From IMG/VR virus record IMGVR_UViG_3300032167_000002, positions 88,286-152,285 of that record: a DNA stretch of 64,000 bases. The stretch is one strand, 5' to 3'. Source of the stretch: a virus. Its lineage: Duplodnaviria > Heunggongvirae > Uroviricota > Caudoviricetes. The notes below the pieces were generated by a model. It searched no databases. It saw only the letters and a program-made list of their open reading frames with translations, and was not told the origin of the DNA. A program made the translations under genes and the position numbers. Below, piece by piece: positions 1-39,488 of the stretch; the stretch's first letter is position 1, and each line of letters starts with the position of its first letter.

Positions 1-2892
1 GCCAAAAAAGCTAAAGATAACGGAGAGATAACTCAAGAAGAATATCAAAAGTTATTTGATGAGCTTTATGCTAAAGAGCAAGAGAAAAAATACTATGCAA
101 TGACTACATTAAAAACTGCTAGTATTGGAAGAGGTTTCTCTATTAATGACAAAGATTATGAATTAACCATAGAACAATATAATGCTATTTTAAATGAATT
201 AGATGAATATATTTTAGCAGAAACTTATGATGGTGAATTAAAAACTGATGCTGAAGGTAGAAAATTTAATTATAAGAGTAGATATGGTACTCTTTCTAAA
301 GCTTTACAAGAGTTTGAGGCTCAAGGTCATAAAGTTCTTGGAGATTCAGAAGAAGCTAGTGATGTTACTTTAACTGAAGTTGAGGTTACAAATCAAAGTC
401 ATATTCGTTTAGATGTTAAATCTCCTTATTTCTATATTATTAGCGAATAGGGTAAACGTATTTTAAATATTGGTGATGGCACTGGATTTGACTTTGAAGA
501 TTATCCATATTTACAATATTCAATTGAAAAGTTCCAGCGAGATAAAGATGGAACAATTCTTTTAGTTAATTTAACTGATGAAACTGGTTCAACTATTAAA
601 ATTGAAGATATAGATGAGGCTAAAGAATTATTAAATTCTGAATGTTCAATTTTAAGAAGTGATGCTTATAATCGTTTTTAGATAAAAAAGAGCATTACTC
701 AAAAAGATTATGATAATATTTGTTTAGATATTGAGGATTATCGTACTAAGAAATTAGCATATTTAAATACTTGGACAGAAGAAAATGCTGAAACTTTTAT
801 TGATAAGACTTATGAAGTTGAATATATTCAAAAAACTGGTTTTATTGGTACTGGTACACAAAAAACGAATTGGCTTGAACCTTATGGAAGAAACCTTTCT
901 AAAGGTTATTATTTAAAATCTAATGATTTTACTTATACTGCTTTTAGTAAAGAGGATGGTATTGCAAGCGGTCAAGGTTCAGGCTTTTTACTTGATTTAA
1001 CAAATGGACACATTAATGCAGCAAATTTAAGCATTGCTTCAAAAAATGTATTTATTGATTCTGGTAAAAATGCTGACCCATTTTTTATTATTAAAGATAA
1101 TGATGGATGTAATTTAATTTATGCTGGACAATAGGATTTTTATATTCAATCTCATACATATTCAAGATATGCTCTTGGAGATAGGCTAACTGATGATAAT
1201 GGTAAACAATATTATTATCCAGGTATGAAAATTGATACTGATGGAAATAATTTTTTATTTGATATTAGAGGTAATTATCAATCAATAGTAAATATTAATA
1301 AGGATGAATTTTTCCTGCAAACTGATAATTATAAAATTCGAGAATATATTACTATAACAAAGTGTTATAATCAAGATTATAGTATGAGTTTTGATATACA
1401 GGTCGGTAAAGCTGAAAAAGGACATATTATTTATACTGCACCAAATTTTAATAAAAAAAGTGAAAATGTTACGACTGAAGAACATACTTCTATTACTTTA
1501 TATGAAAGTAAAAAAATTGATGGAATAATGTGGTATAAAATTAACACTGAGCAATGGATACCAGCATTATCTTTTGAATCGATTGAGGTAAATGATGAAG
1601 GTATTGGTACTGGTATAACTTATTTAAACCAAATTATTTATAGCGATTCTGATTATAATTCTATTAAAGTTGGTTTTACCAAAGATTCTCATGTTGCAGG
1701 TGTTAATATTTAGGCAACTAGAGCAGTTGATGGAGTAGAGTGGTATGCTATTGAAGTACTTGAAGTTGAACATTGGCTACCTGATTATTCTATTAAAACT
1801 GGTTCTTATGGTTCTGGTATTAGATTGGATTTGTAGGGTGGCTATATTGATGCTTATGATTTTATTATTCGAGGTGAATCTAGCACAGACCCCACTGCAG
1901 GTTCTTATTTATTATTAGATAGTTAGACTCCGCAATTTGTAGTTCATTTAACTACTCCAGACAGTGATGGTATAATTGATTTAGATTTAATTAAAATTTC
2001 TCCAGATGAATTTTATTTACATTCTGCAAATTGGTTAGAAACTACTACTCAAGTCACCACTTAGCGGACAGCTAAGATGGACGGCGGCTGGAATATTAGA
2101 AGCGGTCCTGGTATGGATTATTCTATTATCGGTTATTCTTCAAGTGGAAAAAGAGTGGTTGTATATGAAAAGCAGGGAGATTGGTACTGTATCGGAGAAG
2201 ACTAGTGGATTTGGTATGAAGGTTTAACTGATTTTCAAGAAGGTGGAACCGCAAATAAAACTTATGGCACTGGCATGGAAATTGATTTAAATGATGGTCG
2301 TATTACTGCATACAATGCCAATAATGCGGGTAAAGAATTATTAATTAATTCATTACATGATACATATCCAATTTAGCTAGGAGAAATTGGAGATTATAAT
2401 TTCCAAATTGGTTGGGATGGTAGTTTAAAGGGCGGTAGTATTTATGGTTGGAGTATTGATGCAAGTGGTACTGCTACGTTTAATCGTTTGAATGCTAATG
2501 GTGGTGTTTTAAGTTGGATGTCTATCGGCAGTGCTAATATTTATGATGTTGATATTACTTCTGGCACAATTGCAGGTATGGACTTCACTACTGGAGGCAT
2601 TACTGCAGGAGATTGGAATTTTAGTTCTAATGGATTAAGTCATAATGGAAAAGCAATGGAAAAGAAAACTTATGATTCAGTGCGCTATATGTCTTTATGG
2701 ACAAAAAAAATACCAGTAAGTGTTAGCGGTAGTTGCTCAATCGAAATTGATGGAGCTACTTATTATGGCTCATGCTCTGCTAGTGGAAATACTACTGAAG
2801 ATGTAGGTTATAGAATTGGTTATGTAAAAATGATTTATAATGGATATGGAGAAGAAGGTCAAGAGTCTGCAGTTGTATTTACACCAGCATAA
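1..2892 (+). CDS. 5'-partial tail-associated protein (at least 963 aa) with a bacterial SH3 (SH3b) cell-wall-binding-like domain (NIRSGPGMDYSIIGYSSSGKRVVVYEKQGDWYCI). Nine in-frame TAG codons at 448, 679, 1132, 1711, 1834, 1924, 2062, 2203 and 2374 are read as sense. Stop is TAA at 2890.
   Basis: Frame 1 checked codon by codon from 1 to 2892. It contains no TAA or TGA, only 9 TAG. The three same-frame track ORFs (100..450, 1225..1713, 2488..2892) are pieces of one gene. SH3b motif recognised by eye. Confidence 0.7.
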
Positions 2893-2901
2893 GGAGGATT
2901 T

Positions 2902-3270
2902 ATGACAAATTTAGAAATTTTAAATTTTAATGAATTATATAAACAAAATTTTCAAGAATTTGATGAATTATTACCAGCAAAAATTTTGTTTTATATTTAT
3001 AAAAATTTATCATTAATTGAAATATCATTACATCATATTGAAAATACTAGAAATAGTATTATTCGTAAATATGGTTTAATTGATGAATCAAAAGATACTA
3101 TTCAAATTCCTCCAGAATTAGTAAATGAAGCTAATAAGGAATTAGAAGAAGTTTTAAAAATGGAATAGGAAATTAATTTTTTTTTAATTCCTCTTTCATG
3201 GTTTGATAATATCAATCTTAATCCAAAGCATATGAAATTATTATGGATTATGATTGATGAAAATAAATAA
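2902..3270 (+). CDS. Small hypothetical protein (122 aa with TAG at 3166 read through), paralogue of the following gene.
   Basis: RBS AAGGAGGA upstream. Frame 1 continues past TAG 3166 to TAA 3268. The extended C-terminus (LLWIMIDENK) matches the paralogue C-terminus (ALMFMID). The TAG aligns to CAG (Gln) in the paralogue. Confidence 0.6.
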
Positions 3271-3284
3271 AGGAGAAAAAGGTT

Positions 3285-3653
3285 ATGACTATGACAAACT
3301 TTGAAATTTACAATATCGCTAAAGCTATGAGTGACGCCTTCCAGGATGGCACTCAGTATCTACCCGTTAAAGTAAATTTTTTCATTCAGAAGAATAAAGC
3401 TACTTTAATGTCTTTAGCACAAGATATTGATAATTCTCGTATTGAGATTGTTAAGAATTATGGTACTATGGATGAAGAATCCAATCAGTTTATTGTACCA
3501 GAAGATAAGATTGAAGCTGCTAACGCAGAGTTGATGGACCTGTTTAATATTGAGCAGGAAGTTGATATTCGTAAGGTAAGCATTGATTCTTTCCCCGAAG
3601 ATATTAATCTAACCACTGCTCAAATGGAAGCTTTAATGTTTATGATTGACTAA
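3285..3653 (+). CDS. Small hypothetical protein (122 aa), paralogue of 2902..3270.
   Basis: Intact ORF with RBS AAAGGAGAAAAAGG. N-terminal MTNxEIxN and C-terminal AN.EL... similarity to the upstream gene. Confidence 0.65.
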   Translation: MTMTNFEIYNIAKAMSDAFQDGTQYLPVKVNFFIQKNKATLMSLAQDIDNSRIEIVKNYGTMDEESNQFIVPEDKIEAANAELMDLFNIEQEVDIRKVSIDSFPEDINLTTAQMEALMFMID

Positions 3654-3693
3654 TAAATATTAGGCCAGGTAAATTCTTACCTGGCCTAACTTA

Positions 3694-6678
3694 TTGCAGA
3701 GAGAAAGGAGATTAATGATGTCAACTACTAAGTTATACCCTCCTTATGTGGATGCCGCAGTTCCTGCGCAGTTGGTTCCCGATGAAAGTACATCAGAAAC
3801 AACTGTAACACTTACTATTCCATTTCAATTAAATAAGGCAGTAAGTTGGGTAGATTTAAAATCAAAAAATAATATCGCTTTGATTTTGAAAACGGTATCA
3901 ACAGGAAAAGTTTTATTAGATTGTTATAAAGGAAACGTTTTAACTCATTATGAACCTACTGGAACACCTGCCGCAGAATTTGAAATTCCTAAAACTACTT
4001 TTAATCCTGTTGCAGGATAGTTTTATAAAGCTCAAATCGCTTTCATAGATTCTGATGATACTATTGGATATTTTTCAGATGTGACTATTGTAAAATTTAC
4101 TGCAATTCCTGTTATAGGTATTGCCGATTTAGCAAGTGGAACAAATGCTGCTCAATATGTTTATACAGGTACATTTTCAACTACTGATGTTACTGAAAAA
4201 GTATACTCATATGAATTTAATATTTATGATTGTGAAACTGGTATTTTGCATGACACAAGCGGAGTTATGATTCATAATAGTAGCACAGATGTTGAACGAG
4301 GAAAATCTTTTGACACTTGGACATCTTATAAAACTTTAATTAATGAGCGTCAATATTCTATATGTTATAAAATCACTACTATTAATGGTTTAGTGATGGA
4401 AACTCCAGCTTATGGAATAATGGCAGTTGAAACTTTAGATTTAGTTTCTAGAAACACAGAATTTATTGCAACATTATATAGTGATGATGCTTATATTCAT
4501 GTTCATATTATGCCAAAAGATATTGATGCAAATATTAAAGCAATTACTGGTAATTTTATTTTAGTTAGAGCATCCAGTGAAGATGGATTTGGTAGCTGGA
4601 ATGAAATTTATCGTTTCACTTTGATTAATAACTATCCTTTAATGACACTGTGGAAAGATTTTACGGTGCAACAAGGATATTCATATAAATATGCTGTACA
4701 AGCCTATAATTCTAAAGGTGTTTATTCTAATCGATTAGAATGTAAATATTATGCTAGTGAATTTGATGAGCGCAATGATGACATTAACCGTTAGAATTGG
4801 AACGCAGAAGCAAAAGACCCTATTGAAAATACTAACTTAAATTGGAATTATTTACAAGAAATTGATGGGTCTCCAACTCAAAGCGGATTGCCAGTAGATT
4901 TTGAAGATGCTTTTCTTTATGATGGAAAACGCCAATTGAGAATTAGATATAATCCAAAAATTAGTTCTTTTAAATCAACTGTGCTTGAAACTAAAATGGA
5001 TACTATTGGAGGTAAATATCCTTTTATTTTCCGTAACGGAAATGTTGAATATAAAGAATTCCCAATTTCTGGTTTAATTACAATGATTAGCGATGAAAAT
5101 GCTTTATTTATGGAGTATTCCAAAGAGAATCCAAAAGCTCGTCAGTACAGTACACATCCGCCATATGGTAATGATAATGCGGATTGGTGGGTCAGCCGAA
5201 CTGGTATGACGGAGTATGAAGTTCGTAAGACCCAAGAAAAAGAGTTAAGTGGTTCTCCCACAGCATTAACCGCTAGCAACTTCCGCAAAGAGCGTGAATT
5301 TAAAATGGAAGTGTTGGATTGGTTAACAAATGGACAACCAAAGCTATTCCGTTCTCCAAGTGAAGGTAATTTTATTGTTCGTTTAATGAATACATCATTA
5401 ACTCCAAATGATTAGCTTGGACGATTATTACATACTTTCCAATGTACTGCATATGAAATTGCGGAATGTAATTATGAAAATTTGGAAAAATATAAATTTA
5501 TTCATGCTCTCGATACTAGTTATTAGGAATTGAAATTTAAAATGCTTGATTGCAATAATACTTTTGCTGACATTCATAATAGACAAATTATTATTGAGGG
5601 TGGTGCTTATTACTTTGCAGTAATAGACCAATGGAGTTATTTGGCATTGAGAATTACTTATGTAAATGGTACATCACAAGTTATTGATGTTGGTAACTCT
5701 ACTGGACAATATTTGTTTGACAGAGAAGCATTAAAAAATAACCCAATTGTTTCAGTAACTTATCAAGAAGGTGCGCCAGATGTTGGTAGTAAAATTCTTT
5801 ATGGATATTATGATACATCAGATATTGCTTTCTCTTTGATTGCAAGTGTTACAAGAGAAACAGTAGTAGACCAAATTATCGGTCATCCGCAAACTTCTTA
5901 CCGTATAGATAGTTTTAAAATTAATTATGTTCCAACTATTTTAAATGGCATTGGATATAGAGACTTGGCTACAGATTTACAAAAGGTTTATGGCGAAGAT
6001 GAAATTCCTCGTTGTACTCTTGGTAAATTTTATTACTTAAAAGCTGAACCCAGAGAGATTACTTTCGTTTATAAAAAAGAAAATAAATATTATGAAACTT
6101 CAAAATGTGATTATGAGGTTCGTCAATGGGATGATACTTATATTTATAAAGTTTTCGAAGAAAGTGATGGCACTTGGGAACCTACGAATCAATATAGTGG
6201 ACGTCCTTCAAATAATATCTTATTACCAGAGCCAAGTTATCTCATTAAATTAAATGCAAAACCCAATAATGGTATTGACCCTGCTCAAGAAGAGTTTGTG
6301 GATTTAAGTTTAAAGGGCGGTAGCGGAGGTAATGCTCCTATTACTACTGGACGATATGAACTTTATTTTGATTTGGATAAAGTAGAAAGTTTATATATTG
6401 GCTCAGGAGTTGTATGTGAAATTTGTTATAATTTAAATACAATTCATTATGAAGCTGAAGATAATATTCAATATAGTGAATTGGTTGATAGATATAATAC
6501 TTGGCAAAATCAGCAACGTCAATATAAGAGTATGTTAAAAGCTGGATATAGTAGATTTAGTGCTGATGTCGAACGCGCTCGTATGAATATGGAACAAAGT
6601 TATCATTAGTATTTAAATCAGTTAGAATATATTCTAAATAAGTTGCAAATGGATGGTGAGACTTATTATGCTTTATGA
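3694..6678 (+). CDS. Large tail/baseplate structural protein (about 994 aa). Five in-frame TAG codons at 4018, 4792, 5413, 5524 and 6607. Stop is TGA at 6676.
   Basis: Five same-frame (frame 1) track ORFs (3694..4020, 4081..4794, 4888..5415, 5530..6609) are contiguous through TAG only. Codons verified manually across every junction. RBS AGAGAAAGGAG upstream of 3694. Confidence 0.65.
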
Positions 6679-9310
6679 TAAAGAATTTTTGAAAGAATTA
6701 GACAAAACAAAAAATAAAATTGTCTATGCAAAAGTTACTGCATTAACAGTAGAGGAGTCCCCCATTGAAAGCATTGAAGGTCGTGTAACCCAGGGCTCCA
6801 TCAACTTAGATGGAGCTTCTGCGGTTCGTCGTTCTTGTTCTTTATCAATTGTAGCAGAGAATTTTGATTATTCAGATTATTTATGGGGAATGAATACAAA
6901 ATTTAAGTTAGAAGTTGGTTTACAAAATGATATAAATGATAATTTTCCCAAGATTATTTGGTTTAACCAGGGAATTTATATCATAACATCTTTTAATACA
7001 TCTAGAACTACCAATAACTTTACTATTACTATTCAAGGAAAAGATAAGATGTGTCTTTTGAATGGAGAAGTAAGTGGTACTATTGGAGTACAAACAGATT
7101 TTGGTACAATTGAAGAAGAAGATAATGAAGGAACTTGGACTATTAGACAAATTCCTATTCCTGAAATTATCCGTAATATGGTTCATGCATATGGCGGAGA
7201 GCCTTATCATAATATTATTATTAAAGATTTGGATACTTTAGGCTTAGAGCTTTTAGAATATCGATATGAAAATATGCCTTTAGTTATGTATCGTAAAGCT
7301 GAAAGTAATACATATACAAATATTGCTTTTTTAGATAGTGATATGTATTTATATGCTAATAAAAATGATGTCGGAAATGTAGATAGACGAGTATATTTAA
7401 AAGATATTCCCGATACACATTTTGAACAATTAATTGATGGTATTCATACAAGTGACCCTATTGTATATTATGATGATGATAAAGTTGGTTATAAATTAAC
7501 TAAGCTTCAATACGGAGATACCGCAGGTTATCGAACAACTGAATTAACATATGCTGGAGACTTGATTGCAAACGTAGGTGAATCAATTACTTCAGTTCTT
7601 GATAAAATTAAAAATATGCTTGTTGAATTTGAATATTTTTATGATGTTGATGGACGTTTTATATTCCAGAAGAAACAATCTTATACTCAGACTCTATGGT
7701 CTCCAAGTGGTGATGGAGAAGAGGGAATCACAGAAGGTTTGTTATGGAGTGATGCAGCCGCATATACTTTTAGTGGCAGCGAATTAATCACTGGTTTTAA
7801 TAATAATCCTAATCTTTTGAATTTAAGAAATGATTTTTCAATTTGGGGTGAGCGCACAGGCATTAGCGGCGCGCAGATTCCCATTCATTTAAGATATGCC
7901 ATTGATGAAAAACCAACTGCTTATACAACTATTTCTTTAACTGATTTTGATAAGAATGAAGTGGATGAATATAATTTAAAATATGGAACTAATTTAAATA
8001 ATAATCCTACTTCAATTACTTATTCTATTCACCCAAATATAAGTAGAGCTAAGAATTATGTTTATGTAACCGATTGGCGAGAAGTATTGTTCCAAATGGC
8101 AAAAGATTATTTTAGATATAATACTTTAAGTGATTTTGAAATTCGTGTGCGCGAAGCTAATCCAACGCTCTATCCCTCTGGCCGCACAGGCTATGAACAA
8201 TATTATACTGATATTCAAGTTTGCTGGCGTTAGCTATATAATCCTGAATTACGAAATAAAATTGCGGATTATACAGAAGAAGTTGCGGCATTAACGAATG
8301 AAGTGACTCAATTAGATAAAGAAATTAAAGATATTGAGAATAGAATTATTGAGTTGAATAATCAATTAAATACTGCTACAACTCAGAGTTCAATTGATAG
8401 TATTGTTTTATCAATTTTATCAGAGCAACAATCTCGCACTGATAAAAAAGCATTAAAATCTCAAAAAGAATATCTTATCGAACAAAAATAGGAAAGCTTA
8501 GATTCTTATAATGAAGATATTTTAAATTATTATCAAGCTCAAGAATTAATAGAATTAGATGTAAATTTATTTACTACTCAATTCCCCTTATCTGACAGTT
8601 AGATTACTATTGATATTTTAGATAGATTTAGAGTTCCAAAAAATTTAATTGATGAACTTTTAGATGAGAAAACCGGTGAACCAATTGCTATTAAAGTTAG
8701 TGATATCCTTTACTTTAAAGAAGATGATAGTTATTTTTCTGTTATTAATAGTTTTGATGATTATGTAATAATTGCATATTATGATAAATCTCGTCTACAT
8801 TGGCATAAAAATGTTTTTGAGAATCCTGGCAATTTAAATTATTGGTTTGACTTTTTAGATACCGCAGGAGAGCTAAGCCAATATAGCGTACGAGCTATTG
8901 GAGCACGGACGAAAGCTATTAATGAAAATACCGTAAAATCCATTTATTTTAGGGAAACTCCACCAGTTATTTTCGCACCAGATATTACTGATGACGAAAA
9001 AATGAGTGGTTATAAATATATTCAAATTCCAGAATTTGAAATGGATAAAATGTTTAGTATTAGTGCGCAAGGTAAATCCGCAAAAGAGCGCTTAGATGAA
9101 CTTCTTTACAATCATGGTTATTGTACAGAAAGTGCAACTATTACAACAATTCCAGTATATTATTTACAACCAAACACTCGTATTAAAGTATCTGATGAAA
9201 AAACTAAAATTGATGGAGAATACATTGTAAGTAAACTTACAATTCCTTTAGCACATAACGGAACTATGTAGTTAACTACAACGAAAGCTGCATAGACACT
9301 ATTCTTTTAA
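6653..9310 (+). CDS. Tail structural protein (about 885 aa), possibly a siphovirus-type distal-tail/endopeptidase-tail-like protein. TAG at 8231, 8489, 8600, 9269 and 9293 read through. Stop is TAA at 9308. Start is either ATG 6653 or ATG 6668.
   Basis: Frame 2 ORFs 6653..8233, 8303..8491 and 9002..9271 are joined by TAG-only gaps, verified codon by codon. Overlaps the stop of the upstream gene. Confidence 0.6.
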
Positions 9311-9322
9311 GAGAGGAGAGGT

Positions 9323-9661
9323 TTGATGAAAAAGATATATCAATATCGTTATTATGGTAATTCTGATAAGAATTATCCGAAAACTCTAAATGCAGTACAA
9401 TTAACCAATGGTGAAATTTTTAATCAAACCAGTAAGGGTTCCATTACTCATTTGGGTTTACAAGCTTCTCCAGGGACTACATTTTTTTTGAATCGTTGTG
9501 ATAATCCAATTCAAATTGGAAAAACTGGCATCTACGAGATAGATGTTACTGGTTATGGTTATATTACAAGCATTATGTTTAGTGATGATACACTAGCATT
9601 AGTAAATGAAGATAATGGAATTATTATTGATATTATATATGAAGGAGGTACTATCGAATGA
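9323..9661 (+). CDS. Hypothetical protein (112 aa).
   Basis: Intact ORF with RBS AGAGGAGAGG and TGA stop. No amber codons. Confidence 0.6.
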   Translation: MMKKIYQYRYYGNSDKNYPKTLNAVQLTNGEIFNQTSKGSITHLGLQASPGTTFFLNRCDNPIQIGKTGIYEIDVTGYGYITSIMFSDDTLALVNEDNGIIIDIIYEGGTIE

Positions 9662-10845
9662 GCAGCTTTTATGGTTAGATGCGATGGCAAGATTTTCAAT
9701 AGTTCTTCTTAAATTTCACTCTTGAGAATAAACATTTCTCAATTGATAATATTTTTAACACTTCCCCTCCATATGAAAATCAAATGACAATTGATTCGAC
9801 TATGAAGGCATATATTCAACCCAATGAAGATTTTGCCACATTTAGATTTAATGCAGCAAATCATTGGATTAAATTTGCGCCAATTGATTCTTAGGGGGAT
9901 GAAAAAACAACTTATGTTGGTTTTTCAATTTTTCATAATAAACCAAGCTTGGAAAACACCTATACTCTCCCAATTTTTGAAATAACAGTTCCACCTCAAG
10001 GCGCAACAATTGAAACCCTTGAGAGTGGAGAATGCTTTAAGATTGCTTGTCCTGCCTTTGATTAGGCAGGACATTTCGTAGGTGAGGACCATATAGAGCC
10101 AACCTATTTTAAAATGCCAGAGCAATTGATTCAAATTAATCAATCTGGTAATGACTTAGTTCTAACAGCTGAAAAGAAATTCCATTTTGCGAACACAGAT
10201 GGTTTAATTGAACTATTATTAAATGACGCAAAAAATAAATTAACTTTTTAGCATAAAACAAACTTCAATGACAACGAAGAGCCTGACTTTACTCCATTTT
10301 TATACGAAGGTAGTAAAGATGGTACTCAATATGAAGTTGAAATTGTATTGCAACCTGGTGATTTTATTTCAACTTATCATACGGTTTACGATAAAGCGGG
10401 TCATTTAACTACATTAGAAAAAATTTATTATCAATTACCAATTAGTGAAGTTGATTCTCGTATTGAAGTATTAGAAAATACTGTTGCTGAAATTCAAGGC
10501 GACCTTGAAAATATGGCAGGAGATATTGAGACTTTAACTGAAGATTTAGAAGATGCTATAAAAGATGTACAAAGAGCAAATGAAATGGTTGGTACTGATG
10601 CTGAGTTTGGTAGAGGAGACCAAGCCGCAAAAGAAGATTCTTTTAATGCTTGGGTTAAGGCTTTTACAGGAACAACTCAAAATTATCAATCTTTATCAGG
10701 AGCTCTTTCTGCAGTACTTGAAAAATTATCTTCTAATAATACTGATTTAGATAATGAAATGCGTAACTTCTATTCTCGTATTATTGCTATTGAAGATTAT
10801 TTAGATGGTAAGTTTACCGATTATGAGCCTCCAAAGAGAAGCTAA
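9658..10845 (+). CDS. Coiled-coil virion protein (395 aa) with TAG at 9676, 9700, 9892, 10063 and 10249 read through. C-terminal heptad-like region (EVLENTVAEIQGDLENMAGDIETLTEDLEDAIKD).
   Basis: ATG 9658 overlaps the TGA of the upstream gene (ATGA) and is preceded by GAAGGAGG at the proper spacing. Frame 1 is open to TAA 10843 with only TAG interruptions, translated manually. The track shows only the last 165 aa. Confidence 0.6.
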
Positions 10846-12406: not shown

Positions 12407-13924
12407 ATGGCTGTAATTAAAAAAGACGGCAACTTCATGGGCCTTCCTATGAATGTTGCGAGAGGTAATCCAATTCCTCTTGATAAAAGTGAAATTTGGT
12501 ACTCTTATGATGCAATGGAATTATATGCGCAAACCGACCCTGTCGCATATGTAGGTCAGATTCTAGGTTTAGTAGACGAGGCCGCAGGCACCGCTACTGC
12601 GTATATCATTCTAAATACCGCAGGTGAACTCCAAGAGATTGGAGCATCTGTTGATATTCCATCTTTAAAAGGAGATAATTCTTCTATTGTTATTAGCAAT
12701 GAAATTATTGCCTTAAAGAACTGGGGTGTGCAATATTATAAATATGTTGCCGCAACTGAAACTACTGAAGCTGAATATGTCCTTCAAGTCGTTGACGATG
12801 AGAATCCTTGGATTAGTGGTTTAGAGCCAAAAGTCGCCAGCGAAAATGGACAAATGGTATTAGCTTGGTATCAACCAAACCCAACTACCATTGAAGGTTT
12901 AGGCAGTTAGTTATCTTCTTTACAAACTTCTGTAAGCGATTTACAAAAGAATACTTATACTAAAACTGAAGTTGATGAGAAGATTGCGGATGCTGGTCAT
13001 TTAAAGCGAATTATCGTTAATTCTGTGGATGATATTAATGTTAATGCCGCAGATGCTGACCAATATATTTATATGGTATTAACTTCTCCTGAGGATGAAG
13101 CTGACAAGTATGATGAATACATGGTTATTATCTATGAGGATGAAACTGGTACAGAAGTTCGTTATGCTGAAAAAGTTGGTTCTTGGGAAGTTGATTTAAG
13201 TAATTATGTTACTAAAAATGCGCTACAAACCGAACTTAATAAGAAAGTTGATGCTGAAGAAGGCTATTCTTTAATTTCTGATGAAGAGAAAGCTAAATTA
13301 GAAGGCATTTAGGAAGGCGCGCAAAAGAATTATATTACATCTGTTGATTCTACAAATTTTGCAGTTGAAGCTGGTAAGCTTTTATTGCAAGGAATTACTG
13401 TTGCACAAGTTCAAAATTTACAATCACTTTTGGACGCGAAGGTAAATAAAGAAGAGGGTAAAGGATTATCTTCTAATGATTTCACAGATGAACATATTCA
13501 AATTATTCAAGGTAATACTGCTAATATTCAAACTCAAGGTAATAAAATTATTACCATTGAAAATGTATTGAATGATACAGAGATTGATGGTATTGTTACT
13601 CCTGGTTTGATTACTAAAGTAAATAATTTAAGTGTTGCTGTTCAAACTAACACTGATAATATTTCAACTAATGCAGGAAAAATTTTAACCTTAGAAGGTA
13701 CGGTAGCAACGTAGGGTAATGCTATTACTTTATTGCAAAAAGATGTTAGTGATTTAAAAACTAAGGTAAATGCAATTGATTTAACTAAATATGTTACTAC
13801 TGAAATTTTCCAAGCTACAGTTGGTAACCTTGAAGAATTACAACAAAATCAAAAGACACTTCACACTCAGGTAAAAGAAATTCAAGAAGCTATTACTTGG
13901 GGTGAAATTAAAATTAATGCTTAA
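12407..13924 (+). CDS. Tail-fibre protein with coiled-coil and fibre repeats (about 505 aa). TAG at 12908, 13310 and 13712 read through. Contains a GKGLSSNDFTDE tail-fibre-repeat-like motif.
   Basis: Four frame-2 track ORFs (12407..12910, 13025..13312, 13385..13714, 13733..13924) are joined through TAG only. The real stop is TAA at 13922. RBS AAGGAGGA. Confidence 0.65.
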
Positions 13925-26819: not shown

Positions 26820-27704
26820 GTGGCTGATTTAGCTTTACAGTTTAAGTAGGGTCAATATGCTTCAGGTAAGTTTGATAATTCAAATGCAAATCATTTGAAA
26901 CACGAAGCTGGTACCCTTTATCTTGCAACTAATGAAGATTATTCTGCTTATTTATTATTTGATGATGGCGTTAACTTTTTGAATATTATTCCATAGATGT
27001 TAGGTTATCACCACGGTGGTACTGGTGTTGATTTATCAAAGAATACTCCCGCAAATGCAGTTTTAATTCAGAATACTACTTTAAATGGTATTGCTAGTGT
27101 TGCAAGTGCAAAAGGTGCTTTTTATTCTACTGGAACAAATTTAACACCTCAATTTGGAACATTGCCTGTCAATGTTGGTGGTACCGGTATTACTACTGCA
27201 ACAGCTGGTGGTATTTTATATGGTAATGGAACTAATGCTTTCAAAGTAACGGCAAAAGGCGCAAAATCTGCTATCTTAGTCGGTGGTAATGGAACTCCCG
27301 CATTTGCGGCTCCCGCAGTTTCTTGGATTGCAGGTACAACTGCAGGTCCCACATTTAGATTTGCATTAAATGGAACAAATTTTGATGCAGTTATTCCTTC
27401 TGCTTCAACTACTGCTTCTGGTATTATTACTAATGATATTCAAACCATTGGAGGCCATAAAACTTTCAATGATGGTCTTACTATTAATGGTACTGCAAAA
27501 TTTAATGGTGGATTTTAGATTGTTGGTGGTATTGATGCATATTATAATTCTTCTAGTGACCAATCTGTCGGTTCATTAGAAGTTATTGGTGGTATTACCG
27601 CCACAATGAATATGCGTGTTGACGGAGGAGCTATTCAATTTAAAAAAGCTGGTAAAATTCAATATGATGATACAAAAGAATGTTTTAATTTTGTATTCGC
27701 ATAA
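26820..27704 (+). CDS. Tail-fibre protein (about 294 aa), Gly/Thr-rich. GTG start. TAG at 26847, 26994 and 27516 read through. Contains IQTIGGHKTFNDGLTING.
   Basis: RBS GAGGGAAAGGAGG 9 nt before GTG 26820. Frame 3 is open to TAA 27702 apart from 3 TAG. The track ORF 26997..27518 is the middle piece. Confidence 0.55.
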
Positions 27705-27716
27705 GGTGGTGGCAAT

Positions 27717-30134
27717 ATGAGTTTACAAGTATGGTTACCATTAAATAATCATATTAATAACCAAGGATTAAATACTATTCGTTTTAAAAGCTCAAATGTT
27801 TCTTACACTCAAGGTAAGTTGGGCTATTGCGCTAGTGGCACCATTCAAGGAACTGCCGCAGAATTAAATTCAACAGATGGTTTTTGTTGTAGTTTCTGGT
27901 GGAATATTGCCAATGGAGATAGCTATAATATTAAATTTCCTATTACTAACACAGGTATTGATGATATTTTTAATATGGCAAAAATGGATTATACTTCCAA
28001 TTATGCTATTAAATTACATTGCAATAATAACAAACCTCAAATGATTTGGATTTATGATACTCGTTCTACTTCTGGAGTATGGGAGCTTGGAACCTGGAAT
28101 CATTATGTTATTAATGTTAATAATGGAGATTTCGGTGTATAGGTAAAAGTATTTGTAAATGGAGCTTTAAAACATCAATACAATAGCGCTGATTATAATT
28201 TTACATTACGCCCTGGTACCATTAGTATTAGTGGAACAGCAAAAATGAATGATTTTAGATTATATGACCATCCACTTTGTCTAAAAGAAATTGATGAATT
28301 AAGTAGAGGTCTAATGCTTCATTATCCTTTACGAGATAGTACTTTACAAAGCACAACTAATTATTTATTGTATCCAACCCCTGGTAGTAGAGTAAGTGCT
28401 GGATGGGACTCTTCTTTACATCCAAATGCTATTAATGTATCTGGATTTACTGCAGGGTATAACAGTGGTGTTGATTCACCAACAATTGGTTATCATGCCT
28501 ATTGGAATGTTATAGATGACGTGCCTACAATGGTGTTTCCAAATTTAAATTCAGCATATAATTATAAAGGCCGTTGGTTAGGAATTTCTTCATGGGGTAC
28601 TGTTAATTTAGCGTAGGCGATTGGTAAAGGTAATAAATATACTATTTCTTTTGAAGCTAAAAGTGATATAAAAGGTAAAACAGTACAGTTTGGTTTATAT
28701 TATAGAAAAAATGGAGCAACTTCAAATAACTTCCATGATGGACAACATTAGTAGAGCTTAACTACAACTTGGAAAAAATATTCATACACTTGGACTCTTG
28801 GACAAGACGGTGATAGTTCTAATGTGGGAGCAGTATATATGTATGGTCATTATGGTATTGAAGGAACTGCTTATGTAAGAAATATTTAGTTAGAAATTAA
28901 TGACCATGCAACAGATTATGTTTCTGGTAGTAGAGAAGCTTCTAAGGTCTATGACTGTTCGGGTTTTGGACATCACGGTCGTGTAGTAGGAGCAGTATCG
29001 ATGATGCCAGATTCTAGTCGCAATAAATATTCTGCATACATCACAGATGGTCGTAGTAATTATATTGCAAGTGATACTATGATATTTCCAAAAGATAGTA
29101 TAACTATGAGTTGCTGGGTTAAAGGTAGTAACGCAGGATATAGTAATTATCATATTCCATTAAGCTTTGGTAGTGCTAATTATGAATTTTCATTGGAGGG
29201 AACGACTGGTAAATTCCGCGCTGGATATGTTATTAGTGGAACTCGCTAGTGCGTAACAACAAATGGTACTACTATTGATGGGAAATGGCATATGATTACA
29301 TCTACATTTGATGGAACAACTATTCGTAGATATGTTGATGGAATACCTTTAACATCTACTGCGGCCGCAGGTACTTTATCCGGTGGTACTGGTAATTTAT
29401 TGGTTGGTAATTATAATGGTACTACATATGGTAATAGTAAATTATATACTAGTGATGTTAGAATTTATGCTACAGCACTAGATGAACTATAGATTAAAGA
29501 ATTATATTTAAATGGTGCCACTGTAGATAATGGTGGTAATGTTTATGCTTATGAGTTCACTGAAGAGGGCGACAACTCAGTCTTTAAAGAAGGAGTAGTT
29601 GACTTTGAGAATTTTATTGAGTATAATATTAATAAGATAATGAGATATGATGGTGATTTGTGGGTACAAATTTTACATCATAATAATAGAGCTGGTACTA
29701 AGTATTTTACACCATCTAATGCCGCCAATCATACAGAAGAAGACTTATATAGTAGGCTTTATTTAACTGAATAGTTAAGAGGAGCTGATGGTGCATTTGA
29801 ATTTTTAGTTTTGCAACCTGATGATGATGCAGGTACTGTATATAGATGGATTCAAACAAATAATCCAAACAATACAACTTCTGTAACAGGATTTAAAAAC
29901 ATTTCTAATATGAGTGGAGGATTAGTAAAATGCTCGGGTAATACTCATTGGGCAATTTCAACCTCTACTGGAAATTGGTGGAATGCAGTGGGATGCTGGA
30001 CCGCTTATAATGGAGGCATTCCTGGATTTGGTAAAAAAACTATTAAAGGGTCTTTAGATGTGTATGTAAAGTTAGATAAAAGAACAAGCTTTTTAATCGA
30101 CTCTATTGAAACTCAAAACTATTATGAATTTTAA
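27717..30134 (+). CDS. Large tail-fibre/receptor-binding protein with LamG-like (concanavalin-type lectin) domains, about 805 aa. Eight in-frame TAG at 28140, 28614, 28749, 28752 (adjacent TAG-TAG), 28887, 29247, 29490 and 29772. Paralogue of 32793..35219.
   Basis: Frame-3 ORFs 27717..28142, 28245..28616, 29001..29249, 29292..29492 and 29811..30134 are joined through TAG only. The 28617..29000 and 29493..29810 gaps were verified codon by codon. LamG signature DFRLYDHPLCLKEIDEL / DVRIYATALDEL. TAA stop at 30132. Confidence 0.65.
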
Positions 30135-30223
30135 CTTGGACTAATAAGATTAAAGTTCATGAAATAAACATCATTATTATTGAGAATAAATCTCAAAATT
30201 GAATTGAAAAGGAGATTACAATT

Positions 30224-30445
30224 ATGTTAAGAATGGACAATATGAATGTCAACTTTAATGGCGCTAGCGTAGTTGACGATGTTGTAGTCGCAAATATGAG
30301 CGCAAGTTATTCTGGTGCTGAGGTATATTTCAACATGACTATTATTGACTTGGATGGTTATAATGGTAACAAAGAAGTTGTTGAATTAGACTTTGATAAT
30401 TTCAAGGATAAAGCCTTAGAGGGCATCAACGGAATTGCACTCTAA
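30224..30445 (+). CDS. Small protein (73 aa). Possible fibre assembly or accessory protein.
   Basis: RBS AAAAGGAGA. TAA stop followed immediately by a terminator. Confidence 0.45.
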   Translation: MLRMDNMNVNFNGASVVDDVVVANMSASYSGAEVYFNMTIIDLDGYNGNKEVVELDFDNFKDKALEGINGIAL

Positions 30446-30453
30446 TAATTCAT

Positions 30454-30490
30454 AGGGGTGAGGATTTATCCTCACCCCTATTTTTTTTTG
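30454..30490 (+). terminator. Rho-independent terminator (AGGGGTGAGGA...TCCTCACCCCT plus T9).
   Basis: Read directly from the sequence. Confidence 0.7.
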
Positions 30491-30524
30491 ATATATAGAT
30501 TTTGAAGAAAAGGAGTGAAAAATT

Positions 30525-32777
30525 GTGGCACAATTAAGAGATTTAATTGTTAATGGGCCTTCTCGTTTTCTTGGAGTATCTACATATAATGAAGATGTAC
30601 TTCTAAATAAAGGTGCAATTGCTTATGATGTTATTATACCAGGAGAAACCTTAACCTATAATTTAGGTACAGCAGATAACGCTTGGTTAAATATATATGG
30701 TGCAAACCTAAGAGCATCAACAGCAGTTATTGTTACTGGCAGTGCAGAAGCGACAGCCGCAAGTTCTGGAGCAATTCAAGTAACTGGCGGTATTTATGTA
30801 GCTAAAAAATCTTTGTTTGGTAGTGATATTTATTTAGGCTCAACATCTTATTATTTAAATGGCACAACAAGTAAACTAAATGGCTTAACAACTGCCAGTA
30901 CTATTACTTCTGGCGGTAATGTTGTTCCAAGTGAGACTAACAAAAAGAGCCTTGGTACTTCTAGTTTGCGTTGGGCTAACTTATATATTGTAAATGGTAA
31001 CGCTTCTGGCTCACTATCTGTGTCTGGAACTGTAACTTCTACTGGCGGTTTTATTGGAAATTTAACTGGCAATGTTGTTGGTAATGTAACTGGTGATGTT
31101 ACAGGTAATCTAATTGGTGTTGCTGATAAAGCTAATCGTTTAACCAAATCAGGTGGTAGTACTGATAGACCAGTTTATTTTACTACTGATGGAATTCCAT
31201 AGCCTACTACTTATCGTATGGCTGGCACTAATGTAACAGCTACAACAGGAATTGCGATTGGCAGTGCCACTAATACTGGTATTTGGTATGTTAATGATAC
31301 TTCTGGTATTCTTGGTATTAGTGATGGTGTAGCTATTGTAAATAAATATAACGACTCTTGGATTACTCAAATTTATCAAGACTATCGCACTGGTCAACTT
31401 GCGGTTCGTGGTAAAAATAATGGTACTTGGCAAGATTGGAGAGTTATTCTTGATGAAGATAATTTTACTAATTATCTTGATGGTCATTATAATGGTAAAT
31501 ATGTTTTAAAAACAGGCGATACCATGTCTGGCCCTCTAGTTATTCAAACCAGTGAAAATAAATTAACAATGAATACTAGTGGAAGTATTACTACTGAAGT
31601 TACAAAAAGCGGTGGATGGGCACGATATATTGATTGGAAATAGAAAAATACATCTAGTGATACTGCAAGCGTAAAAGCAGAAATGGGTGCCTATGGCGCA
31701 GGAGGAACTTTAAATTATTGGTATGTTGGTACTGGTTGGGAAGAAGAAAATACTTGGTTATAGGTTAATGCAACTGGCACCACTGTAAAAGGAATTCTAA
31801 ATGCAAAAGGTCATGTTTATTTAACAGGCTCTCACGCTAGTTCTAGTACTGGTAATACAACTCAATTAGTGTTTGGTACACCAAGTGAAAATCATGTCGT
31901 ATTATCTTCTAATGATAATGCATTAGTTATTAATCCAACTACTTCTTCCACCACAAATTAGATTGTTTTATATTTAAATAGTAAATCTAAATTCCCTAGT
32001 GGCTTAGACGTAGGCACAGCTTCTTCTTTTGCTTCTGATGTGAATATCGGTGGTAATTTACAAGTTACTGGCTCTATTAAAGGATTAAGTACTTTAGCCA
32101 TTACTGGCGCCACAACTTTAAGTAATACTTTATCTGTAACTGGAGCTGCTTCATTATCAAATACTTTAACTGTATCAAAAGTTACTACCCTAAACGGAGG
32201 TCTTATCGTTAGTGGTAGACCTTATGGCTCTGGTGATGATGAAGGTATTGTTGTTGCACCTGCAGCTAACGGATATGCAGGTATTACTTTAGGTAGTGCT
32301 TCTGGTATTAGAAGTACTCTATATTTAACACCAGCTGATAGAACACATAGAGCAGTTTGGCGTTACTATAATGGTACAACCAATTATGATGTTACGCATC
32401 CTGAAACTAGTGGTGAATTGGTGGTACATACCGCTGATACAGCCGCAGGTAATGCTAGTGTTCCCGTTTATATTGCTGCTTCTGGTGTCGCGACCGCAAT
32501 TACCTGTCTTGAACCTTCAAAAGGTGGTACTGGTAATACCAACTTAGTGAGTGGACGTTTGGTTTATACTGAGGCTTACAACGGTTCAGTCAGAATGACT
32601 TCTGGCGGCAATCATTATGCAAATGCTACTAAGGTTGCTATTAATTCAACTGCTGCCCCCACAGGAGCTTTCCATGTGCAAGGTGATACATCTATCAACG
32701 GAGCGATTACAGTTGACTCTAAGGTAAAATTTGTGTATAATAGTACCGATGAAAGTTTAGATTTTATATTTATTTAA
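30525..32777 (+). CDS. Tail-fibre shaft protein (about 750 aa). GTG start. TAG at 31200, 31641, 31761 and 31959. N-terminus (MAQLRDLIVNGPSRFLG) is paralogous to the N-terminus of 35239..38766.
   Basis: RBS AAAAGGAGTG. Frame-3 ORFs 30525..31202, 31218..31643 and 32040..32777 plus two sub-60-aa segments are joined through TAG. TAA stop at 32775. Confidence 0.6.
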
Positions 32778-32792
32778 GGAGGAGATTAATAT

Positions 32793-35219
32793 ATGAGTTT
32801 ATTAATATGGTTACCATTACATGGTAATTTAGAAAACTATGGTTCTTCTCCAATAAAATTTAGTTTAAATACTACTGGTGGCGGTGTTGCAGCTGCCACC
32901 AGTGGTGGAAAAACAGATATGCGCTGTTATCAACGAACAGCTATTAATACAGTTTCTCATATTACTAGTGATTCCACAATTGATTTAAATAAAGATTTTA
33001 CTATGGCATGTTGGTGTTATCCAACCACTCCTGGTAATGCTACTTCTGCAAATGGAATTCTAACGAATCATAATCATTCTCATAATAGTGATAAAGGTAG
33101 TGGTTCAGGAATTACTTTAAAATATAGTGGTAATACAACTTGTTATATGAGTTGTAATACTTCTTCTTCTACTGGAAGAACATATTATTCATATTATGGA
33201 ACTACAAACATCTATGGAGCTTGGCATCACTTATGTTTAACCTATAAGAAATCTACTAAAACTTATCGTTTATTTGTAGATGGTATTTGCGAAAAGGAAT
33301 TTACTTGCGAGAATGTATCTGCTGCAAATAAATTTAATATATTTGATTGGTCTGTCGGGCATTCAAATAATGGGTCATATAGACCCGCCTGTAAAATTAA
33401 TGATGTGCGAGTATATGATGAATGTTTATCCAAAAGAGAAGTGAAATTATTAAGTCAAGGTTTAGTTTTACATTATAAATTAGATGGCGGAAATGCGAAT
33501 AATTTATTAACTAATTCTTATACGATTGGAAATAGACAAACCTCTTTTGATAAGGTCTATGGATTTCCTGTCTGTAGTGCAGATAATAGTGCAGGCACTG
33601 GATATAAAGATTTTGCTTCTTGGGGAGGACACTCTGTTTCTATAAATGAAGTATATACAGCAAGTTTCTTTGCTAAATCATCTACTTCAAGTACTTTAAC
33701 TATGTACTTTTATAATAATACATCTGGCGTGGTTCAAGTTTCTAATATTAAATCATCTGAAGGACATAATAAAAGCGGCAGTGATGGCAATTGTCCTCTA
33801 TCATTAACTCCTCAATGGAAAAAATATACAGTAACTTGGACTTTTGCAGCAAGCGGAACAACTACAAATAAAACCTTGCTATTTAGACTTGCGGCAGGTG
33901 GTAAATGTGATATAGCTTTACCAAAATTAGAAAAAGGTTCGATTGCTACCCCTTATTGCCCAGCATTAAGTGAAACATTTTTTAATGCTGCTGATGATTG
34001 TAGTGGATATGGTCGTAATGGCACAACAGTTGGTAATATTACTTTTAGCTCTGATACTCCACGCTATGCGGCAAGCTCTGTGTTTGATGGTTCAACCACA
34101 GGCATTAATTTACCAATTAAAGATTTAATGAAAGCAGTATTGAGTGATAAGTGTACTATTAATTTTTGGGTAAAAGAATCAAATACATCAAGTAGAAGTA
34201 TTTACTTTGGCGGTTATAGTGGTAGTAATTTTAATATTGAACAAAATGTAACATCTTTCCGAGTATATTGGAATGGTAGTCCAGATTTATCAGTAGGTAC
34301 AATTACTAATAACGAATGGGCTATGTGGACTGTTACAACAGATATTGCTACTGGTATTAAAATATATAAAAATGCAACTTTAGTAAAAACTCATACGGGT
34401 GCTCTTACTAATATTGCTTCAAGTTTTACAAGAGATTTTAATATTGGTAAAGATAGTAGAACTGATGATACAATGATGGAAGGTAAAATGTCAGATTTTA
34501 GAATTTATGCTTCTGTATTGTCTGCTACTGATATTAAAGACTTATATCAAACTGCAGCGTCAATAACTAAAGAGGGTTCTGTATAGGCTTATGAATTTAT
34601 TGAAGAGCCTGATAGTTTTGATATTAAAATGACTAAATAGGGTATGTTAAAAGCTGCTGACATTTCTGAAATTGGATATATTGGCGGTATGAAAGTTAAA
34701 GTGCTATCCGACAATAGTGCTTGGGCACGTATTCATTGGCTTGACGTGACTACGGATAAAACTTGGTTTACTGCTAGCGAAGTTGCCTTTTGCAATTAGG
34801 CTAATCGTTTTAGTCGAATGGGTTTAGTAGACCATTTTAAAGTAGATGGTAAATATGAGTTTATGTTAACTTATCCGTCTTTGTCAAATTCTTTATATAA
34901 TAGATGGACACAAACAAGCTCTCCAAATGCAAGTACTGTAACTGGTTTTACTGCTATTACAACAGCATGGAATAATCATAATGCAGGCATTCGTAAACAT
35001 GGTTCAGCTTGCGTCTATAACTGTGACACTGGCTCAACTTGGTTTGCTCCTATTGGACAGAAATCTGCTTGGGATAGTACTAAATTTATTCCTGCCGCAG
35101 ATGGCACTTCACAAACTGAAACAGAATTGTGGGTAAGAATTGATACATTACCCAACTTAACAAAAACTAGTATGCTTGATAAAGAATATTTACAAGCATT
35201 TAAGATATATGAAATTTAA
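32793..35219 (+). CDS. LamG-domain tail-fibre/receptor-binding protein (about 808 aa), paralogue of 27717..30134 (MSLLIWLPL... N-terminus, NDVRVYDECLSKREVKLL and DFRIYASVLSATDIKDLY LamG signatures). TAG at 34584, 34638 and 34797.
   Basis: RBS TAAGGAGGAG. Frame 3 ORFs 32793..34586 and 34818..35219 are joined via TAG-only segments. TAA stop at 35217. Confidence 0.65.
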
Positions 35220-35238
35220 GAGAGAAAGGAGTATTTAA

Positions 35239-38200: not shown

Positions 38201-38766
38201 AAAATAATAATAGTGTTGGAAGTAATTTAACGTTAACTAAAGCTGGTATTTTAGTTAATATTGGACCAATCTTTGGCTATAGATATAAACAAACTAGTAA
38301 TGGCGCTGCTTTTATGTGGGATAAACCTGGTAGTAATTACACTGGTATGGGCGCTAATGATTCTAGTGACACTATTCAATTTAGAGCTTGCGATATCGCT
38401 GGTAATTGGGTAGATTATAAACAACATTGGAATTTCTATGGTGATTTATTTGCTTATGGCGCAAGATTTGCAAATAGAGGTACTTCAACATCTACTTCTG
38501 CTTATAGTGATTCAGCAGTTGAAATTCGTGAATACGGTTTTGGCGGCGCTCAATCTGATACTTGGGGAGTTGCTCCTCGTTTAAGTTTCCATTGGAGTGG
38601 ACGTGTTGCAGCGCAAATAGGTCTTGCTTCTAACGGTAAATTATATATCAATAATAATACTCAAGGAAGTACTACATTCTTACAAATTGTCGGTATGACT
38701 GGCTATGGTACTGCAGCCCCATCTGGTGCAGCTCCTGCTGGTTCAGTTTATTTTAAATATAGTTAA
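35239..38766 (+). CDS. Very large tail-fibre protein (about 1175 aa). TAG at 35995, 36427, 36862, 37399 and 37954. N-terminus is paralogous to 30525..32777.
   Basis: RBS AGAGAAAGGAG. Six frame-1 track ORFs (35239..35997, 36031..36429, 36478..36864, 36907..37401, 37585..37956, 38014..38766) are contiguous through TAG only. TAA stop at 38764, then a terminator. Confidence 0.65.
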
Positions 38767-38779
38767 CTAATTAATTGTA

Positions 38780-38824
38780 TACCTGAAAGATGCTTAAAAA
38801 AGTATCTTTCAGGTATTTTTTTTT
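38780..38824 (+). terminator. Rho-independent terminator (TACCTGAAAGAT...ATCTTTCAGGTA plus T9) closing the tail-fibre operon.
   Basis: 12-bp inverted repeat followed by TTTTTTTTT. Confidence 0.75.
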
Positions 38825-38854
38825 GACTTTTTTCTTCCTATTTCCCGCCAATAG

Positions 38855-38992
38855 AGGTCCTCAAAAAGAATTGTCCCAACACAAAAATAATCTTTATTCC
38901 CTCCTAAAATGGCATTCTCGAGGTCCTAGTGGGAACTCGTCTCGGTCCCCGGTTGGTCAATTTAGATTAATTTTTCGGTCCTAATTTTCACT
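38855..38992. promoter_or_regulatory. Intergenic region with four direct copies of an [A/C]GGTCC motif at 38855, 38921, 38943 and 38986 (CTCGAGGTCC / CTCGGTCC variants), upstream of the 39048 cassette. Candidate regulator-binding or promoter region.
   Basis: Repeats seen directly. There is no ORF and no tRNA-like structure in the region. Confidence 0.3.
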
Positions 38993-39047
38993 ATACTATG
39001 AGGGGATGGATAATGAAAATTTTTTGTATGGAAAGGAGACCTTACAT

Positions 39048-39488
39048 ATGTATTCCAACTATAATTATTATCCACAGCAACCTACACAGACTCCACAAGT
39101 CACCCAATAGCAATCAATGTACTAGATGCCCTATTTACGACAGGCGCCGCCGCAAACAGGACTGAAAGGCCGTTTGGTTAGTTCATTGGAAGAGGCCCGT
39201 GCAACCTCTATTGACTTCGATGGTTCTGTATTCTATTTTCCAGATTTGGCGAACAAACGAATCTACACAAAACAAATAAATATGGATGGTACCGCTACAT
39301 TATGTATGTATGAATTAAGGGAATTACCCATTGAAAAAGAAGAGAGCGCTGTATTGCCATCCGTTGAGAAATTTGTAACGAGAGAAGAGTTTGAGCGGGT
39401 CTTGGAGTATATTAAATCACTTCAAAAGCCAACCGAGCCGGCCGCACCCGCCCCGCAGAAACAGAAAGTAGAAATTTTATCATTCTAA
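39048..39488 (+). CDS. Hypothetical protein (about 146 aa) with a Gln/Pro-rich N-terminal extension containing TAG at 39108 and 39123. The core (from the internal ATG at 39126) has KGRLVSSLEEARA...DFDGSVFYFPD.
   Basis: RBS GAAAGGAGA plus ATG 39048. Frame 3 is open to TAA 39486 with two TAG in a QVTQ-QSMY- context. The track called only 39126..39488. Confidence 0.5.

Follow-up and report, generated by a model that had tools for sequence, protein, structure and literature searches.

The phage whose genome contributes the 64,000-nucleotide stretch analysed here (positions 88,286 to 152,285 of the IMG/VR record IMGVR_UViG_3300032167_000002, Caudoviricetes; hereafter the window) very probably reads the codon TAG as glutamine, that is, uses genetic code 15, and this reading is the best explanation of the data as a whole. 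We propose that the window is part of a genome of about 160 kb or larger, belonging to a large tailed gut-metagenome phage with Bacillota-style Shine-Dalgarno sites, that TAA and TGA would be its sole stop codons, and that TAG would be decoded by a phage-encoded, glutamine-charged amber suppressor tRNA(CUA) whose gene lies outside the window. A first-pass annotation of this DNA had arrived at glutamine from two tandem paralogues, 2902..3270 and 3285..3653, in which a TAG of the upstream copy faces a CAG of the downstream one. Its assignment is borne out by a tally of codon substitutions among related genomes, and most of the evidence comes from beyond the paralogue pair.

In-frame TAGs number 65 and are carried by 20 of the 52 window genes, none of which ends in TAG (TAA 40, TGA 12). 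The gene list is our own and agrees with the gene calls on identical contigs in ENA. Reading TAG as a sense codon raises the coverage of the window by open reading frames of at least 100 residues from 85.4% to 95.6%, and genes of 800-1200 residues are recovered. Two ENA contigs (ERZ27248370 k141_3261538, of 158.5 kb, and ERZ27248446 k141_1991094) match the window, which has a G+C content (GC) of 36%, at 99.99-100% identity, and the same long genes are called on them, consistent with TAG read-through. On contigs with the same proteins, among them Ga0257089_10000596 with proteins identical to those of the window, the standard-code calls of JGI leave the genes fragmented.

Related loci were collected by exact-protein look-ups and from GenBank and were compared by tblastn with X at every TAG, counting one observation per site per non-identical lineage; ten lineage groups were obtained, nine of them with observations at TAG sites, at 32-77% overall identity. 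The window TAG sites yielded 134 site-by-lineage observations: Gln 46, TAG 29, Glu 10, Ser 8, Ala 6, Lys 6, Gly 6, Thr 5, Arg 5, Asn 3, Leu 3, Ile 3, Val 2, Met 1 and Asp 1, with Trp and Tyr in none of the 134. Glutamine thus accounts for 46 of the 105 sense observations, compared with a background share of 3.6% of the aligned residues, and the TAG columns are not predominantly Ser, Leu, Tyr or Trp, the residues against which the first-pass annotation had set glutamine. With likelihoods based on lineage-matched empirical substitution tables, estimated from the same alignments, the best-fitting identity is glutamine; relative to it Glu stands at -92.7 natural-log units, Lys at -102, Ser at -193, Leu at -257, Tyr at -280 and Trp at -341. 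The reverse tally agrees, as in-frame TAGs of the relatives face a window glutamine in 73 of 165 cases, and the positions facing a window glutamine are TAG in 6.1%, those facing any other residue in at most 1.0%. Counting either glutamine or TAG as conserved, TAG sites are conserved in 56% and ordinary glutamine sites in 57%. The glutamine-rich surroundings of two ambers that had been pointed out in 39048..39488 are exact: the gene, which may start at 39006, reads PQVTQ[TAG]QSMY[TAG]MPYLRQ with TAGs at 39108 and 39123.

The least credible of the alternatives is that TAG, as a sense codon, specifies something other than glutamine (Glu, Lys, Trp, Tyr, Leu, Ser or pyrrolysine). Glu and Lys are among the next commonest partners of TAG sites, the short tRNA(CUA) genes of the nearest relatives are overall closest to tRNA-Trp(CCA) (0.74-0.75 identity), and ARAGORN labels the tRNA(CUA) genes with a long variable arm in some relatives as Pyl; yet each of the six standard residues trails glutamine by the likelihood distances given above, Trp and Tyr never face a TAG site, and su+7, the suppressor derived from tRNA-Trp, is mainly charged with glutamine. 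Against pyrrolysine, the Pfam listings of the window genes hold no Pyl machinery.

The paralogues themselves are as the first-pass annotation had described them. Each is 122 codons long once the TAG at 3166 is read through, each is preceded by an AGGAG-type ribosome-binding site, and their products are 33% identical over 120 residues with one gap (BLASTP, E=4e-22). In this alignment the X of the upstream copy pairs with Q91 of the downstream copy, so that the TAG lies exactly opposite the CAG, in the contexts ...LKME[TAG]EINFF... and ...FNIE[CAG]EVDIR...; the predicted peptide of 2902..3270 crossing the TAG site reads K.MEQEINFFLIPLSWFDNINLNPK. As the partner has 7 glutamines among its 122 residues, the coincidence in a single column is weak on its own (p ~0.06 for TAG facing glutamine by chance). 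It becomes strong because the column is an invariant glutamine of the orthologues. A search with the downstream copy found 207 relatives, and in the best 120 of them (57-99% identity) together with the window copy the column facing the TAG is glutamine in 121 of 121; the downstream copy is conserved at this level in more than 200 metagenomic proteins. Since the upstream copy also retains 11 of the 14 other columns that are at least 98% conserved, the paralogue column would by itself make glutamine at TAG 3166 likely.

It is very unlikely that TAG 3166 is a true stop, the product being a truncated protein of 88 residues or the gene a decaying pseudogene, with the equal lengths of the two copies coincidental. 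A dispensable gene would fit the upstream copy, which is unusually rich in AT (GC 19%), has diverged (sharing at most 40% identity with the copy of any relative) and is missing from some close relatives: it is absent from loci L005 and L007, and has 125 codons in L006 and L009 and 122 in L008. Against a true stop, the frame stays open for 33 more codons up to a TAA, to the same length as its partner, and these codons remain homologous. The family-profile score of the upstream copy is 79.7 bits at full length and 62.8 bits for its first 88 residues, so the 33 residues past the TAG contribute 17 bits; scored by themselves they give 7 bits, a value reached by 2 of 1000 shuffles. Moreover, the upstream copy of L008 likewise carries a TAG in this column and runs on past it, all other copies having CAA or CAG there, and the 64 other TAGs of the window behave alike. 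Several more exchanges between TAG and glutamine codons are found elsewhere among the relatives within this small paralogue family.

With TAG 3166 read as glutamine, the pair would be a tandem duplication, old and variable, of phrog_1401, a small helical protein of the tail module, in which a very AT-rich upstream copy presumably carries one sense TAG at a family-wide glutamine position. The phrog_1401 profile matches the downstream copy at E=7.8e-11 and the upstream copy at E=5.7e-5, and the AlphaFold model of the downstream copy is helical (predicted local distance difference test, pLDDT, 90). Matches of the family in the BFVD structures are uncharacterised phage proteins only; it has no Pfam match, and no fold in the PDB matched it below E=1. 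The GC of the upstream copy, 19%, compares with 34% in its neighbour and 36% in the window, and it is a fast-evolving or exchanged copy adjoining a highly conserved one.

Several observations weigh against the reading of TAG as a reassigned glutamine codon. About half of the sense residues opposite TAG sites are not glutamine, and individual sites are no proof, although such a share is expected as the overall identity of the lineages is only 32-77%. The others concern the decoder. Searches with ARAGORN and Rfam found no tRNA or other code-change gene in the 64-kb window, no tRNA is present in its own right flank of 10 kb (L024, 100% identical to the window), and none in the left-flank stretches of relatives. 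A rightward walk along an IMG/VR contig, 88% nucleotide-identical to the window genome over an overlap of 10.7 kb, met no tRNA for about 48 kb past the right end, equivalent to about +112 kb. In addition, overall similarity does not tell whether the tRNA(CUA) genes of relatives originated from tRNA-Gln or from tRNA-Trp. Two concatenated flank proteins used as a query for homologues returned tape-measure fragments only, on short contigs devoid of tRNAs.

The 88%-identical contig stops 0.4 kb upstream of a gene of 499 residues (L111 379..1878), and in relatives a tRNA array precedes this gene. Locus L197, which is 96% nucleotide-identical to that contig in their overlap, continues into ten tRNAs, one of them a tRNA(CUA) of 75 nt; in genus-level relatives the array position lies about 48 kb beyond the right end of the window, and it holds a tRNA(CUA) in many relatives. 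Altogether, L197 and 27 other related loci carry 28 tRNA(CUA) genes with 25 distinct sequences; the 1-72 pair is mismatched in 19 of these and G73 is present in 20, and all have the anticodon loop CUCUAAA or CUCUAAC. The tRNA(CUA) of L197 combines U1.C72, G2-C71, G3-C70 and G73 with the loop CUCUAAA. Classing these tRNAs by overall similarity was tried and abandoned as non-discriminating, since Trp, Gln, Cys and Met all give 0.65-0.77.

A U1.C72-type acceptor with G2-C71, G3-C70 and G73 is the identity set of glutaminyl-tRNA synthetase (GlnRS) in E. coli. In this organism the classical amber suppressor supE is tRNA-Gln changed from CUG to CUA, and su+7 is tRNA-Trp changed from CCA to CUA, which is mainly charged with glutamine as U35 is a GlnRS determinant. 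The short tRNA(CUA) genes of the relatives are like both of them in the class I body, the CUA anticodon, the weak or mismatched 1-72 pair, G2-C71, G3-C70 and G73. Unlike supE and su+7, which are chromosomal mutants that suppress partially, they would represent a standing phage gene serving about 65 codons in the window alone, with predicted glutamine charging. The tRNA(CUA) of L197 (3182-3256) is nearly identical in its D and anticodon arms to a phage tRNA-Trp(CCA) of L190 (3375-3448) save for C35U, its 1-72 pair being changed from A-U to U.C, and it looks like a natural counterpart of su+7. According to a recent preprint, phage tRNA(CUA) molecules are known substrates of E. coli GlnRS (PMC12636597). 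From the arrays of the relatives, their GlnRS-type acceptor set, the likeness to su+7 and the GlnRS-substrate report, the decoder is most likely a phage-encoded, glutamine-accepting tRNA(CUA) outside the window, its presence in the window genome and its glutamine charging both being inferred.

Alternatively, TAG could specify glutamine with no phage tRNA at all, through a host suppressor, a near-cognate tRNA-Gln or inhibition of release factor 1, with partial and regulatory read-through. No tRNA was seen in some 130 kb of sequence taken from the window and from its closest relatives, one close-relative contig stops right where the array is expected, and recoded phages that lack suppressor tRNAs have been noted (PMC10607447). 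We consider this unlikely, as near relatives carry the array, with the contig 96% identical to the one that stops short running into ten tRNAs including a tRNA(CUA) and many relatives holding a tRNA(CUA) at the same position, and as single essential structural genes contain 8-9 TAGs, which leaky read-through would traverse with extreme inefficiency.

The best GenBank relatives by protein search are MT835469, an unannotated gut phage of 176 kb, and phAss-1 (OQ749652), the nearest relative in the published literature, followed at greater distance by Enterococcus phages that are not recoded. At the nucleotide level the window has no match to GenBank phages, a megablast of 2000..6000 likewise giving none, and an IMG/VR scan with the single protein of gene 3715..6678 found one distant locus only. 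By tblastn the tail proteins, DNA polymerase (38%), primase, Sak4-like and YorF-like proteins match phAss-1 in the same order, at 26-38% amino-acid identity overall and with no nucleotide match. NCBI places phAss-1, a member of the proposed Phassvirus group, in a 'Caudoviricetes code 15 clade'. Judged by its proteins, the window phage is a distant relative of phAss-1 that belongs to the same broad group but not to the genus Phassvirus. As the identity is only 26-38%, it is a different lineage of this group, and a very common one judging by its metagenomic matches.

phAss-1 carries TAG in 41 open reading frames, has glutamine at conserved terminase positions and encodes three tRNA-Sup-CTA genes (Babkin et al. 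2023, PMC10607447). Like the window phage it is a large human-gut phage (136 kb) with TAG as glutamine inside virion genes and some DNA-metabolism genes, with homologous tail and replication proteins and a gene set that includes DNA polymerase III alpha, NrdD/NrdG and primase. In the phAss-1 group NAD-salvage genes adjoin the tRNA array, and phAss-1 itself encodes tRNA(CUA) genes. Two of its suppressors adjoin nrdD, whereas the window has none there according to ARAGORN and Rfam; conversely, the window lineage has an extra 29-kb block of tail-fibre genes and the tandem phrog_1401 pair. OQ749652 (our loci L002 and L027) is deposited with the standard code, so that its virion genes appear as strings of short coding sequences labelled 'hypothetical protein', and a re-annotation with table 15 is found only in the supplementary data of its authors.

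The precedent on which the first-pass annotation had drawn, reassignment of TAG to glutamine in crAss-like and Lak phages, is well known, but it is a precedent only, as the window phage is neither of these but a phAss-1 relative. TAG recoding in gut phages and its link with late genes are established (Borges et al., bioRxiv 10.1101/2021.08.26.457843), and mass spectrometry has shown that crAss-like phages insert glutamine at TAG (Peters et al. 2022, PMC9523058). The crAss-like phages (Crassvirales) and the Lak megaphages also use genetic code 15, yet they are unrelated lineages that infect Bacteroidota. Unlike them, the window has strong AGGAG Shine-Dalgarno sites and genes resembling those of SPbeta and of Enterococcus phages. 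Its structural and replication genes match proteins of Enterococcus, SPbeta-like and Clostridium phages by PHROG and tblastn, and no crAss-like relative was found for those searched; the sole link is a weak partial match of 39774..40496 to the spike protein of the crAss-like phage cr116_1.

TAG-to-Gln recoding in gut phages is already well known, and this broad group has already been published; the finding itself raises no new question. With it, a well-populated lineage of large gut phages of the Bacillota type joins the phages that recode TAG as glutamine. Table 15 is needed for the window and for its many metagenomic relatives, as tail genes of 800-3000 residues otherwise fragment; both the JGI gene calls and phAss-1 as deposited show this. 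Recoded genes also have TAG-free neighbours, among them an apparently mobile tail-fibre block.

Coordinates of the features discussed (window positions unless a locus is named)
Feature	Position	Strand	Remarks
Giant post-tape-measure tail protein, C-terminal part	1..2892	+	9 in-frame TAGs
Upstream paralogue	2902..3270	+	122 codons, one in-frame TAG, GC 19%; phrog_1401 member, tail-module protein
In-frame TAG, codon 89 of upstream paralogue, read as Gln	3166..3168	+	opposite invariant Gln of orthologues
Downstream paralogue	3285..3653	+	122 codons, no TAG, GC 34%
CAG (Gln91) of downstream paralogue	3555..3557	+	opposite TAG 3166-3168 in pair alignment
Tail or baseplate genes g3, g4, g6	3715..10845	+	5 in-frame TAGs each; g5 none
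Structural gene	12407..13924	+	3 in-frame TAGs
Tail-fibre-like genes g14-g22	26997..39753	+	23 in-frame TAGs
Gene with TAGs 39108, 39123	39006..39488	+	both TAGs face CAG in relatives
Replication and nucleotide-metabolism module	41939..61869	-	scattered TAGs: g27, g29, g32, g42, g49, guanylate kinase, RecJ-like
Guanylate kinase	48309..48878	-	4 TAGs
RecJ-like gene	56068..57804	-	carries TAG
Long-arm tRNA(CUA), examples	L027 7051-7141 (phAss-1), L177 7140-7230, L191 1506-1603, L198 3813-3904, L219, L223; IMG/VR L252-L383
tRNA(UCA) with mimic arm	IMG/VR L389, L395, L402, L409, L416, L421, L422, L432 and others

In the window, the plus-strand half is given over to tail and tail-fibre proteins, and the minus-strand half to DNA polymerase III alpha, NrdD/NrdG, Dda-like and DnaB-like helicases, a primase, a Sak4-like protein, a dUTPase, a guanylate kinase, a RecJ-like protein and a lysozyme. 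Sense TAGs are found above all in virion genes, and the main replication enzymes have none, the TAG-free genes of the minus-strand module being those for DNA polymerase III alpha, NrdD, the helicases, the primase and the phage lysozyme, and we infer that recoding may have a regulatory role in late expression. There is no simple split between early and late genes, as shown by 48309-48878 and 55141-56028, both on the minus strand: the guanylate kinase gene holds four TAGs, and the RecJ-like and YorH-like genes one or two each; the phage lysozyme gene holds none. Just outside the window a DHFR gene is split in two by standard-code calling (L025, a JGI contig with proteins identical to those of the window).

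The block of structural or tail-fibre-like genes at 10932-26701 is free of TAG except for gene 12407-13924, has a higher GC and is mosaic. Its protein of 2683 residues (15797-23848) contains no TAG, where about 16 are expected at the rate of the neighbouring genes. The stretch from about 9.6 to 39 kb is missing from the relatives L001 and L009, and gene 10932-12392 is 98% identical to its counterpart in L005, compared with 58-80% for its neighbours. The block looks like a recently exchanged cassette, whose source was possibly phages with the standard code.

Recoded and TAG-free genes also differ in codon usage. The G-ending share of the respective codon pairs is 16% for CAG, 20% for AAG, 22% for GAG and 17% for TTG in TAG-bearing genes, and 47%, 52%, 36% and 38% in TAG-free genes. 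The idea that TAG specifically replaces CAG was rejected: since AAG, GAG and TTG are similarly depleted, the scarcity of CAG in recoded genes is not specific to glutamine and reflects a general difference in codon usage between the two gene classes.

A separate observation concerns the variable region of phage suppressor tRNAs. Six of the 28 tRNA(CUA) genes, a set not selected on the arm, are 88-98 nt long and have a class I body with a hairpin in the variable region, and the 7-nt loop of this hairpin is in all six YUCUGAR, the anticodon loop of tRNA-Gln(CUG). Aligned to the tRNA model of Rfam, the CUA arm takes the anticodon position and the insert falls in the variable region. In IMG/VR a motif scan recovered 63 contigs bearing a tRNA(CUA) of this build, and a scan unbiased with respect to the arm added further long tRNA(CUA) genes with class I bodies, whose arm loops carry CUG or UUG, the other glutamine anticodon; selection on the motif entered in part into the scans for long-arm tRNA(CUA) genes. 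Of 62 unique sequences, 42 close the loop with a stem of at least 3 bp, with CUG (35) or UUG (7) as the central triplet and 12 different closing stems, and the loop takes the form N-U-CUG/UUG-A-N. As controls, the motif occurs in 1 of 18 class-II-bodied CUA tRNAs and in 8 of 217 ordinary Leu, Ser and Tyr tRNAs.

Arms of the same design are found in further tRNAs whose anticodon is non-native. Long tRNA-Ile(UAU) genes (L174, L212, L243, L130) have the arm loop CAGAUUA, with GAU at its centre and covarying stems. In 24 phage tRNA(UCA) genes of 94-99 nt with a tRNA-Trp-like acceptor, obtained by a scan selected on the loop, the variable region holds a complete anticodon arm like that of tRNA-Trp, with a stem of 4-6 bp and the loop CUCCAAA. 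Tentatively, such an arm could in this phage clade be a decoy of the cognate anticodon that secures the amino-acid identity of a tRNA for a recoded stop codon, although we regard this as less probable than not; our hypothesis is that it is read by the synthetase or else allows an alternative fold. No description of an anticodon-like variable arm was found in the literature searched, which is not proof that none exists, and the observation may be new. If true, the mimic arm would be a new mechanism of tRNA identity underlying stop-codon reassignment, and it might open a new question, namely how a suppressor tRNA keeps its amino-acid identity after a change of anticodon. The window phage might make use of the mimic or do without it, its nearest relative (L197) having the short su+7-like form.

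The protein of 240 residues encoded by 39774-40496 has more than 8000 metagenomic relatives, many of them at 85-100% identity, with one exact copy on a contig of 406 kb. Its C-terminal two thirds match proteins annotated as fibre or spike in unrelated Clostridium, Bacteroides and crAss-like phages, and it appears from these matches to be a widely exchanged receptor-binding module. In some relatives genes for GIY-YIG endonucleases split nrdD and the gene for DNA polymerase III alpha (L018 15334-18432; L021 18335-20698), which looks like insertions of the homing-endonuclease or intron type; in the window both genes are uninterrupted.

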